The position numbers were made by a program, and so were the translations under genes. A stretch of DNA of 56,195 bases, taken from assembly GCA_947165945.1 (NCBI GenBank), contig CAMVCF010000003.1, positions 1 to 56,195 of the forward strand, written 5' to 3'. Of this stretch, positions 40,057-47,395 are shown in pieces; the stretch's first letter is position 1, and every line of letters begins with the position of its first letter. The stretch comes from an uncultured Clostridia bacterium. GTDB lineage: Bacteria; Bacillota_I; Bacilli_A; RF39; UBA660. Under the pieces are notes generated by a model. The model was not told where the DNA came from, did no database searches, and saw only the letters and a list, made by a program, of their open reading frames with translations.

Positions 40057-40620
40057 TTAAAATTTTAATATATTTTTTGCTGATTCATATTGTACTTTAA
40101 CAAGCACTTTACCCTTATCAGACATCTTATTATAACTTCTATCTAATTTATCCATAACAAATTTACTTCCATCATCTATAGATAGGCCTTTTTCTTTATA
40201 AACCATACTTAAAAGCGATGGAATACTATAAAAATGTGCCATAGCATCAGAATCAGCTACACATATTTCTTCAGGTGATGTTTTATCAGCTAACCTGCTT
40301 CCACGATGGTTTAAAATACATTTTTTAATTAATTCTATTTTATCAGTTGGATAACATTCAGCAAGTAAAAGTTGTTCTGCTATATCTGCACCTATAATAT
40401 GATGCTCTTCAGTAAAACTTACATCTGTTACACTAGCAATGTCATGAAGAAGAGCTGCTATTGCAACTATTTCTAAATCTGCACCATATTCACTAGCATA
40501 TTTTTTTGCTAGTTCATAAACTATTTTTATGTGATGGTCCCATGCTCCTATCCCATATGCATTTGTAGGTTGTTCACATCTATTTTTAACTTCATTATAC
40601 ATTTTATCTTCAATTGTCAT
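40057..40620 (-). CDS. HD-domain phosphohydrolase (cassette A cargo)
   Basis: HHIKIV, ALLHDIA, EHHIIGA, ILNHRG, VADSDAMAH; SD AGGAG. Confidence 0.85.
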   Translation of the reverse strand: MTIEDKMYNEVKNRCEQPTNAYGIGAWDHHIKIVYELAKKYASEYGADLEIVAIAALLHDIASVTDVSFTEEHHIIGADIAEQLLLAECYPTDKIELIKKCILNHRGSRLADKTSPEEICVADSDAMAHFYSIPSLLSMVYKEKGLSIDDGSKFVMDKLDRSYNKMSDKGKVLVKVQYESAKNILKF

Positions 40621-41962: not shown

Positions 41963-42676
41963 TTATATTTTTTTAATATTATATGGTGTCTTTATAATAT
42001 TCTCAATGTTTTTAAGTAATACTTTATCGATCTTAGTAAAATATAATGTTAAAGAATAATTCTTATTATTTGAAATATTTAAACCATCTACTAATACTTT
42101 TCCCATATCAATAATTAATGTATTTTTATTTAAATATTTTTTAAATTCTTTAACTAATATTGGATAATGAGTACAACCAAGTACTAAAGCATTTATATTT
42201 GAATATTTTTTTAAATAGTTTTCTATTACTTTAATATCTATTTTATTAGACTCTATCATAGGAACAAATTCAGTCGTTGCAACTTCTATTATATTATTAA
42301 TACTATTTTTAAAAATATGACTTTCTACTGTTTTTTTTGTTCCAAAAAGTAATATACTTTTTAAGTTTAATTTTTTTAAATAAAAAATAGTTGGAGTAAT
42401 AATATCAATAATTGGAATTGATGTTTTCATTTTTAATTCAGAATAACAATTTGAACTAACGGTTCCACATGCAATCACTATTAAATCAACTTTTATTTCT
42501 TCAAAGAAATGAATAATATTAGTTGATAAGTTTAATAGAGTTTCTTTATCTTTTTCTCCATAAGGAACATTTAAAGTATCCCCATAATAAATATATTCAT
42601 TATTAGGATATTTTTTTATAAATTCTTTTAATACATTAAGGCCACCTATACCAGAATCAAATAATCCTATTTTCAT
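41963..42676 (-). CDS. murI: glutamate racemase
   Basis: IGLFDSGIGG, YGDT..VPYG, VIACGT, LGCTHYP. Confidence 0.93.
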   Translation of the reverse strand: MKIGLFDSGIGGLNVLKEFIKKYPNNEYIYYGDTLNVPYGEKDKETLLNLSTNIIHFFEEIKVDLIVIACGTVSSNCYSELKMKTSIPIIDIITPTIFYLKKLNLKSILLFGTKKTVESHIFKNSINNIIEVATTEFVPMIESNKIDIKVIENYLKKYSNINALVLGCTHYPILVKEFKKYLNKNTLIIDMGKVLVDGLNISNNKNYSLTLYFTKIDKVLLKNIENIIKTPYNIKKI

Positions 42677-42850
42677 ACATTACCTCCTGTTAAATTCTAT
42701 TTTTAATTTTTATTATTAGCATTTTTTATTGGAAATATAATAAATAATATTTCTATCCAAGATTAGCACATTCATTAAAGATTAACAATACTAAATATAA
42801 TATTTTTATAAAAATTAAAAAGATAGAATCATTAGACTCCATCTAATTAA

Positions 42851-44128
42851 TTATTTTATAACTTCTATTCCACCCATATAAGGTCTTAAAGCAACTGGCA
42901 CTTTAATAGATCCATCCTCTTGATAATTATTTTCTAAAAATGCAATTAAAGCACGTGGAGTTGCAAGTACAGTATTATTTAAAGTATGAACAAAGTAAGT
43001 TCCATTTTCTCCTTTTGTTCTAATTCCAAGACGACGTGCTTGAGCATCTCCTAAAGTAGAACAAGACCCTACTTCAAAGTATTTTTGTTGTCTTGGACTC
43101 CATGCTTCTACATCACAAGATTTGACTTTTAAATCAGCTAAATCTCCAGAACAGCATTCAAGTGTTCTAACTGGAATATCTAAACTTCTAAAGAATTCAA
43201 CTGTGAATTCATACATTTTTTTATACCATTTCATAGAATCAGATGGTTTACAAAGAACTACCATTTCTTGTTTTTCAAATTGATGTACACGATATACTCC
43301 TCTTTCCTCTATTCCGTGAGCACCAACCTCTTTTCTAAAACATGGTGAATAACTTGTTAAAGTAATTGGAAGACTTTCTTCATTTACAATTTGATCTTTA
43401 AATCTACCAATCATTGAATGCTCTGAAGTACCAATTAAATATAAGTCTTCTCCTTCTATTTTATACATCATATTTTCCATTTCAGAAAATGACATTACTC
43501 CATTTACAACATCAGATCTAATCATAAATGGTGGTATACAATAAGTAAATCCTTTATTAATCATAAAATCTCTAGCATAAGAAAGCATTGCGCTATGTAA
43601 TCTTGCCATATCTCCCATTAAGAAATAAAATCCATTACCACTTGTTCTTCCACTTGCATCTTTGTCAATTCCTGAAAACTTTTCTAAAATATCAGCATGA
43701 TATGGAATTTCATAATTTGGAACAACAGGATCGCCAAAGCGCTCCATTTCAACATTTTCAGAATCATCTCGACCGATTGGTACACTTTCATCAATTATAT
43801 TAGGAATAGTTAACATAATTTTTCTAATCTCTTTGTTTATTTCTTCTTCCTCTTTTTCCATTGTTTCAAGTTTATTATTTATTTCTATAACTTTTTCTTT
43901 ATTCTGATTGGCTTCAGTCACTTTTTTTTCTTTAAATAGTTTGCCAATATCATCACTTAATTTTTTTCTTTCACTCCTTAGAGTATCACCATTTGCTTTT
44001 AATTCTCTTGATTTTTTATCTAAATCAATTACCTTATCAACTAGTTCAAGTTTTTCCTCTTGAAATTTCTTTTTAATATTTTCTTTTACAACCTCTGGGT
44101 TTTCTCTTAAAAATTTAATATCTATCAT
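42851..44128 (-). CDS. serS: seryl-tRNA synthetase
   Basis: N-terminal coiled coil; LIGTSEH, PCFRKE, RVHQFEKQE, TLNNT..ATPR. Confidence 0.96.
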   Translation of the reverse strand: MIDIKFLRENPEVVKENIKKKFQEEKLELVDKVIDLDKKSRELKANGDTLRSERKKLSDDIGKLFKEKKVTEANQNKEKVIEINNKLETMEKEEEEINKEIRKIMLTIPNIIDESVPIGRDDSENVEMERFGDPVVPNYEIPYHADILEKFSGIDKDASGRTSGNGFYFLMGDMARLHSAMLSYARDFMINKGFTYCIPPFMIRSDVVNGVMSFSEMENMMYKIEGEDLYLIGTSEHSMIGRFKDQIVNEESLPITLTSYSPCFRKEVGAHGIEERGVYRVHQFEKQEMVVLCKPSDSMKWYKKMYEFTVEFFRSLDIPVRTLECCSGDLADLKVKSCDVEAWSPRQQKYFEVGSCSTLGDAQARRLGIRTKGENGTYFVHTLNNTVLATPRALIAFLENNYQEDGSIKVPVALRPYMGGIEVIK

Positions 44129-44633
44129 TTTCTTCCTCCATTATTTCATCTAATTTATTTTTTATTTTTGTATATGCAACTTCATATCTTTTACTAATTC
44201 TCTCATAATCATTTATAGTTGGATTTTTAATTCTAGTAATATCCATATTATGCTTTAGATCAGATAATTTTACATTTAATACATGAATATTTTCACTACT
44301 AATTATTCTATCAATATAATCAGGATAATATTCACCTTTTTTCTTAGTTAAATAAGTTAACATCGAAATTATTTCATCATCATATCCAAATTCTTTTAAA
44401 TCCGAATAACTTATATTAGTATCTTCCACTATGTCATGTAAAAGTGCAACTATTTTTTCTTGATACAACGAGACACCTGAATACACCTTAAATAAGTGGT
44501 TAAAATAAGGAAGTCCACCTTTATCTACTTTATCATCAAAAACTCTTAATACTAGTTCTAATGTTTTATAAAGTAAATCTTTATTTTCTTTTAATGCTTG
44601 ATACTCATTCTCTTCAAAATAACTTTTTAACAT
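44115..44633 (-). CDS. small alarmone hydrolase (stand-alone RelA/SpoT HD domain)
   Basis: VDKGGLPYFNH, ALLHDIVEDT, LTKKK, VKLSDLKHNMD: His/His-Asp/Asp metal ligands and the ED pair are present. Confidence 0.85.
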   Translation of the reverse strand: MLKSYFEENEYQALKENKDLLYKTLELVLRVFDDKVDKGGLPYFNHLFKVYSGVSLYQEKIVALLHDIVEDTNISYSDLKEFGYDDEIISMLTYLTKKKGEYYPDYIDRIISSENIHVLNVKLSDLKHNMDITRIKNPTINDYERISKRYEVAYTKIKNKLDEIMEEENDRY

Positions 44634-44650
44634 ATTTTCTCCTTTTAAAT

Positions 44651-44836
44651 AAAAAAGAATGGCTAATTAAAGACGTCCTTAGACTGTACCATTCTTTCTT
44701 TCACTTTTTTTGATAACGATAATAATAATTACCGGAACTGATTAGGTTCTCTAAAGAGTAGATAAATAGTTTTTATTGTTAATTTTCACCAACCCATTAA
44801 CTCTCTGAAAATAAAAATTCTATTATTGTCTCTTTT
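44651..44836 (-). promoter_or_regulatory. T-box riboswitch, Ser specifier (UCU)
   Basis: Stem I with AGAGAG and GGUGAAA motifs; specifier UCU-A at 44760-44762; antiterminator AAAGA/UGGUACA/GUC-UAAG-GAC/UCUUU; terminator AAGAAUGG...CCAUUCUU-UUUU. Confidence 0.8.
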
Positions 44837-44841
44837 TCAAT

Positions 44842-45051
44842 TTACATATATTTTTGCATTTGTTTCATCATTTGTTTTACTTGTTTTTCATTAGGTGTTC
44901 TTCCCATACCACTCATAAGTGTTTTAATCATATCTTCATTTATCGGTGGATTTTTCTTTAAATACTTAGTCATTAATTTTCGAGATACAAAAAATCCTAT
45001 AACTGCACCAACAATTAATCCAATAACTATCATTAATATGTCATGTAACAT
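44842..45051 (-). CDS. yneF: YneF (UPF0154) family protein
   Basis: KYLKKNPPINEDMIKTLMSGMGRTPNEKQVKQMM. Confidence 0.9.
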   Translation of the reverse strand: MLHDILMIVIGLIVGAVIGFFVSRKLMTKYLKKNPPINEDMIKTLMSGMGRTPNEKQVKQMMKQMQKYM

Positions 45052-45105
45052 TATAATATCAACTCCCTAAAAATAATATACTATATCTTTAAATTTTATT
45101 CAAGA

Positions 45106-45690
45106 TTATTTTTTTACTTTTTTCCAAATATTAATGTATTCTATCATAGATACAATAGACATAATAACTGCAAAGTAAATTAAAAAATCTGCAACTTTTA
45201 AATTTATAAGTTCGAATGGTAAATTATAAAAAAACATTAATGCAAGTCCAATCATCATTGATGCAGTCTTTATTTTTCCAGATTTAATTGCTGCTGTTAC
45301 ATAACCTTTTTTTAATAAATCCATTTTAATTGCATTAACTACTTCATCTCTAAAAATGTATATTACTGGAACAATTGAAGGTATAAAACCACGACAAGCA
45401 AATATAACTAAGCATGAATTTACTAATACTTTATCTGCAATTGCATCTAAAAGTTTTCCTGTATCAGTTACAAGATTATTTTTTCTAGCAATATTACCAT
45501 CTAAATAATCGGTAAATGCTGCAATAATATAAATAAGACCAGAAATAAAATAAACTGAATCAACAACAAGCCCAGCTATATTAAATTTTGGAAAATTAAT
45601 TCCTACCATATAAAAAGGAAATAAACATAAAATAACTATAACAATTGTTAATATAATTCTTGTAACAGTTAATCTATTAGGTAAGTTCAT
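45106..45690 (-). CDS. pgsA: CDP-diacylglycerol--glycerol-3-phosphate 3-phosphatidyltransferase
   Basis: MNLPNRLTVTRI, TDYLDGNIARKNNLVTDTGKLLDAIADK. Confidence 0.93.
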   Translation of the reverse strand: MNLPNRLTVTRIILTIVIVILCLFPFYMVGINFPKFNIAGLVVDSVYFISGLIYIIAAFTDYLDGNIARKNNLVTDTGKLLDAIADKVLVNSCLVIFACRGFIPSIVPVIYIFRDEVVNAIKMDLLKKGYVTAAIKSGKIKTASMMIGLALMFFYNLPFELINLKVADFLIYFAVIMSIVSMIEYINIWKKVKK

Positions 45691-46204: not shown

Positions 46205-46556
46205 AAAATACTTTATAAGCCATGTTCTGTCCCTTTAAAAGGTGGCAAACATTTATCTATTATATTTCAAATCCTAGGTTTGATTCAGTTTCTCTCTCCT
46301 AAGCTCCCCTACCAATATTTGGGTTTCTCACTCGTGGGGTTTACTATGTTCCACTTCCTCCGTTTCCAGATTCTTCATCACTATAGCACTTTTATAATTA
46401 CTCTAACCATAGAAAACTTTAGGTTATTTCATAGCCGTTAGTAAAAACTACTTAAGGTTATTTTTTCCCTTAACACGAACACTACTATCATCTCAGATAG
46501 TGTGAGCATGGACTTTCCTCTATATTACAAGAATACAGCGTTTGCCAAAGTATTTT
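46205..46556 (-). ncRNA. rnpB: RNase P RNA (type B)
   Basis: GAGGAAAGUCC near the 5' end, ACAGAACAUGGCUUAU near the 3' end, P1 pairing AAAAUACUUU/AAAGUAUUUU; directly after gpsB as in Bacillus. Ends are approximate. Confidence 0.93.
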
Positions 46557-47049: not shown

Positions 47050-47126
47050 TGGTGATCAGTACGGGATTCGGACCCGTGAATGCTGCCGTGAAAGGGCAGT
47101 GTGTTAAGCCACTTCACCAACTGACC
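47050..47126 (-). tRNA. tRNA-Glu (UUC)
   Basis: GGTCAGTTGGTGAAG...CTGCC-CT TTC AC-GGCAG...CCA; T-loop reads TCCGAAT. Confidence 0.93.
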
Positions 47127-47135
47127 AAAAAAAAA

Positions 47136-47212
47136 TGGCGCCTCAACTGGGACTTGAACCTAGGACCCCTTGATTAACAGTCAAGTGCTCTAACCAACTG
47201 AGCTATTGAGGC
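47136..47212 (-). tRNA. tRNA-Asn (GUU)
   Basis: GCCTCAATAGCTCAG...CTTGA-CT GTT AA-TCAAG...GGTTCAAGTCC...CCA. Confidence 0.96.
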
Positions 47213-47225
47213 AAAACAATATAAA

Positions 47226-47302
<77 letters not shown>

Positions 47303-47319
47303 ATTTACATATCACTCTT

Positions 47320-47395
47320 TGGTGTCCAGCTAGGGATTCGAACCCTAGACCCACTGATTAAGAGTCAGTTGCTCTACCAACTGAGCTAGCCAGAC
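47320..47395 (-). tRNA. tRNA-Lys (CUU)
   Basis: GTCTGGCTAGCTCAG...ACTGA-CT CTT AA-TCAGT...GGTTCGAATCC...CCA. Confidence 0.96.

Follow-up and report, generated by a model that had tools for sequence, protein, structure and literature searches.

A divergent serine T-box leader ahead of an Aph1-type hydrolase gene and serS in an uncultured ruminant-gut bacterium

Introduction

Class I T-box leaders (Rfam RF00230), such as those of Bacillus subtilis tyrS, glyQS and serS, carry a Stem I with an AG bulge, a distal loop and a specifier codon followed by A, a Stem III, and an A1/A2 antiterminator with a UGGN bulge that competes with a terminator and its U-run, and a synthetase gene lies downstream. 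All of these elements are shared by the leader described here, which is located in a 56,195-nucleotide (nt) stretch of DNA (the window) from an uncultured Clostridia bacterium of the ruminant gut (RF39, UBA660; GCA_947165945.1, CAMVCF010000003.1) and precedes a predicted small alarmone hydrolase (SAH) gene and serS. Sequence runs that contain the window sequence come from bovine, sheep and goat gut metagenomes. Unlike the known class I leaders, the first gene under its predicted control encodes an alarmone-type hydrolase, it has no promoter of its own and its Stem I begins 5–6 nt past the stop codon of the preceding gene; moreover, the leader shows no visible K-turn and departs from its relatives in the letters of the S-turn.

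The closest characterized relative of the hydrolase is Aph1, an immunity protein (Ahmad et al., 2023; PMC10083569). According to that study, six signature residues (D24, R96, D116, R119, K133 and Y134 in Aph1) separate Aph enzymes from ppGpp hydrolases, and mutants showed that D24 and R119 set the specificity for ppApp. All 12 purified Aph homologues hydrolysed ppApp, and two of the 12 had modest activity on ppGpp. Aph-type (p)ppApp hydrolases were found to be widespread and mostly not toxin-linked (Ahmad et al., 2023). The window enzyme shares with Aph1 about 36% identity, the compact HD fold, and the catalytic and six signature residues. It differs from Aph1 at both ends, the N-terminus being longer by about 17 residues and the C-terminal helix longer as well, in being chromosomal with no adjoining toxin, Tis1-like or MuF gene, and in its position under a T-box with translational coupling to serS. 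The SAH antitoxins ATfaRel and PaSpo and the enzyme Mesh1 are likewise single-domain RelA/SpoT-type hydrolases, and some of this group act on (pp)pApp and on 3'-pyrophosphorylated tRNA. Unlike them, the window enzyme has no adjoining toxSAS gene, its TM score against them is about 0.6 and its specificity residues differ.

An earlier note on this DNA had read the locus as an SAH gene under a serine T-box, co-transcribed ahead of serS, and knew of no described T-box-controlled SAH. Full-text literature searches agreed with the latter statement: those for a T-box with an alarmone hydrolase, small or otherwise, returned nothing, and one that paired a T-box with an HD-domain serS operon brought up a single, unrelated paper. 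Translation is named among the themes of Aph gene neighbourhoods in PMC10083569, and serS and T-boxes are absent from the main text of that paper. The layout of T-box, Aph-type hydrolase gene and serS is real, conserved and undescribed in the papers that were searched.

Results

Identification of the T-box leader

The features of the locus are collected in Table 1. At the gathering threshold of 93 bits, RF00230 reported no T-box in the window, and a whole-genome T-box scan missed the leader as well. The earlier note had proposed an Infernal search as a check, and its outcome was mixed: a sensitive scan gave a partial match of 33.7 bits (E 7e-6) to the distal part of Stem I, below the gathering score and with the rest of the model unmatched. 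Despite this miss, we keep the T-box call and regard the leader as a real but divergent Ser T-box, because orthologous leaders and covariation both point to it. Five leaders of the genus match the full-length model at 40–64 bits (E 1e-5 to 1e-11), and where this operon occurs in other genera its leader reaches 60–113 bits, with eight leaders at or above the gathering score. The RNAalifold consensus of 22 aligned leaders contains 44 pairs, 17 with compensatory changes, which fall in four Stem I segments, the hairpin at the Stem II position, Stem III, A2 and the terminator; across 23 aligned leaders, compensatory changes are present in every helix. Examples from the Stem II-position hairpin and Stem III are the change from GAAC/GTTC to GGAT/ATCC and the CGGG/CTCG variants. 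The distal platform of Stem I is also recognizable, since CAGAGAG and GGGTTGGTGAA align to positions 27–85 of the RF00230 model and their flanking helices covary. The serine UCU T-box with antiterminator and terminator that the earlier note had placed here is thus borne out, on the (-) strand.

The UCU specifier (T80, C81, T82) is invariant across the 22 leaders, and leaders from 16 further genera have either UCU or UCA at this place. No tRNA-Ser was found in the genome to which the window belongs, a metagenome-assembled genome (MAG) that is 67% complete and in which 14 tRNAs were detected, so the tRNAs of a congener (G001) were used for comparison. This genome carries a tRNA-Ser(UGA) that ends in GCCA and a tRNA-Ser(GCU), and both UCU and UCA are compatible with the UGA anticodon of the former. 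A genome-wide scan found 9–14 T-boxes per genome in these bacteria, and among them the hydrolase gene was found behind the serS T-box only.

Table 1. Features of the serS locus, in window coordinates
Feature	Position	Strand	Basis
Likely operon promoter TTGAAT-17-TATATT, 5' of the UPF0154 gene	45075..45103	(-)	Consensus scan and conservation
UPF0154 family small membrane protein gene, 69 amino acids (aa)	44842..45051	(-)	Pfam PF03672, E 1.1e-29
Ser-specific T-box leader, whole element, 208 nt non-coding	44634..44841	(-)	Partial RF00230 match and orthologous leaders
Stem I, base helix AAAAGAG/CTCTTT	44753..44836	(-)	Partial Rfam match and covariation
AG bulge CAGAGAG	44801-44807	(-)	Distal platform
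Stem I distal loop GGGTTGGTGAA	44785-44795	(-)	Distal platform
Specifier UCU (Ser), then conserved A	44759..44762	(-)	Sequence
Hairpin at the Stem II position	44735-44749	(-)	Compensatory pairs
Stem III	44717-44734	(-)	Compensatory pairs
Antiterminator: A1 AAAGA/UCUUU, bulge A-UGGU-ACA, A2 GUC-UAAG-GAC	44669..44697	(-)	Covariation
UGGU bulge	44688-44691	(-)	Sequence
Intrinsic terminator, 5' strand AAAGAATGG (T-box core)	44647..44697	(-)	Minimum-energy fold, -15.7 kcal/mol
Terminator 3' strand CCATTCTTT, then U-run	44654-44662	(-)	Fold
Hydrolase Shine-Dalgarno AAGGAG	44639-44644	(-)	Sequence
Aph1-family small alarmone hydrolase gene, 172 aa	44115..44633	(-)	PDB 7smg match
serS Shine-Dalgarno GGAGG	44135..44139	(-)	Within the last hydrolase codons
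serS, seryl-tRNA synthetase, 425 aa	42851..44128	(-)	TIGR00414, 416 bits; PF02403 and PF00587
Intrinsic terminator closing the operon	42821..42844	(-)	Sole terminator-like site in a scan of 42500-45300

A predicted single transcription unit

A TTGAA(T/A)-17-TA(A/T)(A/G)AT element is kept 5' of the UPF0154 gene in all 19 congeners examined. Only 5–6 nt separate the UPF0154 stop codon from Stem I, and a consensus scan combined with comparison of congeners found no promoter-like site in this interval. In this genus the T-box is most likely an internal attenuator behind the UPF0154 gene, with no promoter of its own; the T-boxes of relatives in other genera are directly preceded by ordinary promoters. 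The 14-nt overlap of the hydrolase gene and serS described in the earlier note was confirmed, the serS ATG lying 14 nt ahead of the hydrolase stop codon, and a GGAG-type site is found 6–10 nt 5' of the serS ATG in 20/20 congeners examined. From the overlap and the synteny we infer that the hydrolase gene and serS are co-transcribed, and the locus as a whole would form one transcription unit in the order promoter, UPF0154 gene, Ser T-box attenuator, aph-like hydrolase gene, serS and terminator.

Antiterminator and terminator

An antiterminator composed of A1, a UGGN bulge of 7–8 nt and A2 can form in 23/23 leaders. Its helices vary in a compensatory manner, with AAGGA/UCCUU, AAAGA/UCUUU (the clade of the window) and GGAA/UUCC in A1, and GUC/GAC, GUGC/GCAC and CGUC/GACG in A2. 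The N position of the bulge is U or C, which pairs with G73 of the tRNA-Ser(UGA) of G001. When the 3' part of each genus leader was folded, the structure of lowest energy was always a hairpin (-12 to -17 kcal/mol) with a U-run behind it. In textbook T-boxes the 5' strand of the terminator is the 3' half of the antiterminator, whereas here it is the T-box core, which gives a mirror-image topology. As a result, both structures would compete for one 5' strand: the segment AAAGAAUGG (44697-44689) of the terminator is common to A1 and the bulge, making terminator and antiterminator mutually exclusive, and the predicted terminator has A2 inside it and hides UGG by pairing it with a strand similar to NCCA. 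The 3' strand of the terminator shifts register among species yet always pairs with the bulge UGG; it reads GCCAUUCUUU in the window, in two species it is GAUACC, facing GGUAUC, and GUACUA occurs elsewhere.

In several species this 3' strand reads GCCA, ACCA or CCCA and so resembles the 3' end of a tRNA (window 44647-44697 and leaders L002-L024), and it may represent a built-in competitor for the tRNA-binding site. A different form was observed in other genera (L023, L026, L168 and L172), where the terminator looks like A1 prolonged downward, as in AAGACCAAAGUAGGA ... UCCUAUUAUUUGGUCUU with its trailing U-run, so that the antiterminator lies within the terminator and is not excluded by it.

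The hydrolase is predicted to be an Aph1-type enzyme

In HMMER searches, the closest solved relative of the hydrolase was PDB 7smg, Aph1 of Bacteroides caccae (E 6.6e-19), and RelA/SpoT hydrolase domains matched at E 1e-5 or worse. The Pfam HD_4 match was marginal (12 bits at E 0.15; the cut-off is 27 bits), and the TIGR00691 match was weak. The catalytic residues H46, H66-D67, E70-D71, D125 and N129 are intact and invariant in alignments. The H, HD, ED and D motifs named in the earlier note are accordingly present, and what changes is the assignment, from a generic SAH to an enzyme with the Aph signature. All six signature residues (6/6) are kept in the HMMER alignment to 7smg, as D37, R109, D131, R134, K148 and Y150, corresponding in this order to those of Aph1 listed above. 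Where TtRel contacts guanine (R43, R44, S45), the hydrolase has D37, K38 and G39, and Aph1 has D24, K25 and A26. An AlphaFold model of the hydrolase (pLDDT 94.6) found 7smg as its best Foldseek match (TM score 0.92 by target; root-mean-square deviation, rmsd, 1.7 Å); Mesh1, PaSAH and RelH gave TM scores of 0.5–0.66 and rmsd of 5–10. The same comparison indicated a compact fold, in which two helices of ppGpp hydrolases are absent. On these grounds the hydrolase is predicted to be an Aph1-type HD enzyme that strips the 3'-pyrophosphate from adenosine nucleotides ((p)ppApp, pApp), and activity on ppGpp is not predicted.

The genome also encodes a 485-aa RelA/SpoT homologue (RSH) outside the window (G000:C11:21882-23333 (-)), with HD, synthetase and TGS domains and intact hydrolase motifs. 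It lacks the remainder of the C-terminal regulatory region and is present throughout the genus beside a second RSH of about 700 aa. Considering the Aph-type signature together with this RSH, a second ppGpp hydrolase would be neither needed nor indicated. No toxSAS gene lies beside the hydrolase gene, whose neighbours are the UPF0154 gene and serS, and in most genomes of the genus the PF04607 matches are the ~700-aa and ~485-aa RSHs alone, with no synthetase of toxSAS size.

Conservation and loss of the arrangement

Every locus of the genus has the order UPF0154 gene, leader of about 200 nt, hydrolase gene and serS. The layout was found in 22/22 genus genomes in which serS is assembled, the UPF0154 gene being syntenic in 22/22 loci, and a hydrolase orthologue was detected in 21/22 congeners searched; the exception, G007, also has no assembled serS. 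Across the family, 151 genomes from 150 genera were sampled; 32 of them have a stand-alone Aph-like open reading frame, which lies directly 5' of serS in 21. A T-box at E < 0.001 was found in 16 of the 19 loci that were newly fetched (seven at or above the gathering score), with specifiers that are all UCU or UCA. A T-box also precedes the hydrolase gene in three further serS-linked loci, in G032, in G028 and on contig C40 of G009. The layout is held across at least 20 genera, with 35–58% protein identity between them, and, as the synteny check proposed in the earlier note shows, it is not a recent one-off insertion.

The hydrolase is under purifying selection, with ratios of non-synonymous to synonymous substitution (dN/dS) of 0.11–0.31 within the genus; those of serS are 0.03–0.19. 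D37 and R134 are kept in 21/22 serS-linked copies, and the catalytic residues together with D37/R134 in 20/22 further serS-linked copies. In many genera the T-box stands directly before serS with no hydrolase gene between them. Lineages with and without the hydrolase are interleaved on the serS tree, which fits an old arrangement with repeated loss.

Several individual loci depart from the common layout. One copy (G076:C1:48370-49400, L184) is a pseudogene with three stops that still lies between T-box and serS, and another (G118:C4:70620-71620, L185) is open but degenerate, catalytic positions having changed, H66 to K and E70 to T among them. In G099 (C5:12600-14860, L183) the order is Aph-like gene, Ser T-box, a gene for a 325-aa dipeptidase-like protein and serS. 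Genome G009, a MAG already with a genus-type locus, contains a second locus with the order thrS, T-box, Aph-like gene and serS (C40:4000-8710, L084); in the tree this serS falls with that of another genus, and contig C40 is therefore probably a binning contaminant. A stand-alone unit of T-box and hydrolase gene was considered for this contig and for G028 and was rejected, as serS follows in both.

Other observations

In a distant Bacilli genome (G050:C1:663500-671500, L082), an Aph-like gene with 43% identity follows a gene for a diadenosine-tetraphosphatase-like metallophosphoesterase and precedes a large helicase-like gene. Elsewhere in the window, 46211-46553 (-) and 47053-47395 (-) contain an RNase P RNA of class B (260 bits) and four clustered tRNA genes, and 40057-40620 (-) encodes a further HD-domain protein, of the HDIG type and 187 aa long, which has no relation to the Aph-like gene.

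Discussion

Considering the leader, the hydrolase and their conservation, we tentatively propose, with a confidence that falls a little short of even, that the Ser T-box reads the charging of tRNA-Ser and induces an Aph-type hydrolase that clears adenosine 3'-pyrophosphates, together with seryl-tRNA synthetase (SerRS), in one transcription unit. During synthesis of the leader, Stem I would read the anticodon of tRNA-Ser(UGA) through the UCU specifier, and the proximal partner UCUUU would pair first, forming A1. If the tRNA is uncharged, its GCCA end would pair with the UGGU bulge and lock the weak antiterminator (A1 and A2), so that RNA polymerase reads through. Otherwise the distal strand GCCAUUCUUU would displace UCUUU and take the T-box core into a terminator hairpin of about 13 bp before the U-run, where transcription would stop. 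Read-through would yield the hydrolase and, by translational coupling, SerRS, so that both proteins would rise when tRNA-Ser is uncharged, and basal read-through would maintain a constant low level of hydrolase.

The (p)ppApp to be cleared could come from a side reaction of the bacterium's own RSH or from an injected toxin of the Apk/Tas1 type. Because (p)ppApp synthesis uses ATP and would depress charging, a T-box would be a sensible trigger for a clearing enzyme: the drain on ATP would lower tRNA charging, and the T-box would raise the enzyme along with the synthetase. We favour this link to the energy state as the rationale of the arrangement.

A number of observations weigh against this proposal. 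No (p)ppApp source is established for these bacteria, and a partner synthetase sought by phylogenetic profile was rejected, since at least two RSH synthetase genes occur in 14/21 genomes with hydrolase-serS linkage vs 65/130 without it (p = 0.17, no association). Outside the family, not one of 80 diverse Aph-like loci lies beside serS, and a search by regular expression alone detected no T-box core immediately upstream of any. One metatranscriptome and the DNA runs matched only conserved serS fragments of relatives, which gives no transcript support for co-transcription or attenuation. In such AT-rich DNA an internal serS promoter may exist: promoter-like sites in the scanned region occur at the chance rate, a promoter-like motif lies within hydrolase codons 127–156 in 6/20 orthologues, and synonymous-site conservation is modestly raised over these codons, which also hold the most conserved protein motif. 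In G099 the hydrolase gene is upstream of the T-box and not behind it. The hydrolase gene has repeatedly been lost, killed or pseudogenised while T-box and serS persisted, so it is dispensable and could be a passenger. The remaining points concern the window leader itself, which is far under the Rfam threshold, with the lowest score among all leaders examined. The base helix follows the UPF0154 stop too closely to leave space for a K-turn, and none is visible by eye; at the S-turn, likewise by eye, AAUA/UUA stands where relatives carry AGUA/GAA; and the antiterminator, whose bulge has 8 nt, contains an additional G and is displaced by one register.

The main rival takes the hydrolase gene as a passenger or orphan immunity gene that was captured once between T-box and serS for safe, steady expression and guards against (p)ppApp-producing toxins of phages or competitors, its T-box control being incidental. 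We consider this somewhat unlikely. The patchy distribution with repeated loss, the dead copy and the pseudogene all fit such a gene, as do an evolutionary rate two to three times that of serS, a slot that can take another gene (the dipeptidase-like gene in G099) and the fact that Aph1 is itself an immunity protein. Defence genes, however, usually move and turn over, whereas this one has kept its position across at least 20 genera at 35–58% identity, its catalytic and specificity residues are under purifying selection, and its tight translational coupling to serS has been retained.

The earlier note had also suggested repair of blocked tRNA CCA ends. In this reading the enzyme would remove from the CCA end, of tRNA-Ser especially, a 3'-pyrophosphate added by a toxSAS-type enzyme and so restore the substrate of SerRS, the product of the same transcript. 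Such a reaction is chemically possible, since the SAHs Mesh1, ATfaRel and PaSpo restore the charging of pyrophosphorylated tRNA; 3'-pyrophosphorylated A76 is similar to pApp, toxins that act on particular tRNA species exist, and the gene is paired with a synthetase gene. The regulatory logic is nevertheless weak, because the T-box pocket senses a free 3' end and, by the known mechanism, pyrophosphorylated tRNA should not induce it. Most genus genomes, moreover, have only the ~700-aa and ~485-aa RSHs and no synthetase of toxSAS size that could be the partner. This explanation is therefore quite improbable.

We think it very unlikely that the window leader is a decayed T-box that no longer switches, with the operon simply read through from the UPF0154 promoter. 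The low Rfam score, the vanished K-turn and S-turn letters and the altered antiterminator would suit decay. The variant is, however, common to three species whose flanking genes differ by a dS of about 0.7–1.3, the change from AAGGA/UCCUU to AAAGA/UCUUU is compensatory, and the specifier, the UGGU bulge and the strong terminator persist. With no antiterminator to oppose it, a terminator of -15.7 kcal/mol that always acts before the essential serS would do harm.

Least probable is a (p)ppGpp hydrolase that damps the stringent response under serine limitation, one of the two options in the earlier note: the RelA/SpoT-type HD fold, the catalytic residues and the modest ppGpp activity of two of 12 Aph homologues (Ahmad et al., 2023) would allow it, but D37 and R134 correspond to the Aph1 residues for ppApp specificity, guanine-binding residues are absent, the HD_4 match is marginal, the fold is much nearer to Aph1 than to any ppGpp hydrolase, and the separate 485-aa RSH already has intact hydrolase motifs.

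The proposal that the Ser T-box induces an Aph-type hydrolase together with SerRS leaves an Aph-type gene wired to a sensor of a known signal, uncharged tRNA-Ser, in a wiring that has been kept across about 20 genera. Through this layout, an enzyme family that is still poorly understood acquires a physiological context open to testing, and genes of a new class enter the T-box regulon. The leader also represents a T-box variant, which is predicted to have no promoter of its own and a terminator that hides the tRNA-binding bulge with a strand resembling a tRNA end. A further step, which we regard as unlikely, would be that across this large gut family of uncultured Bacilli failed charging normally yields, as a by-product or a signal, an adenosine 3'-pyrophosphate species, whether as free (p)ppApp or at a pyrophosphorylated tRNA end, and that the removal of this species is tied to tRNA-Ser charging by a riboswitch and not by ribosome-bound Rel. 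If this were true, (p)ppApp would gain a housekeeping role, and alarmone turnover would join the T-box regulon.

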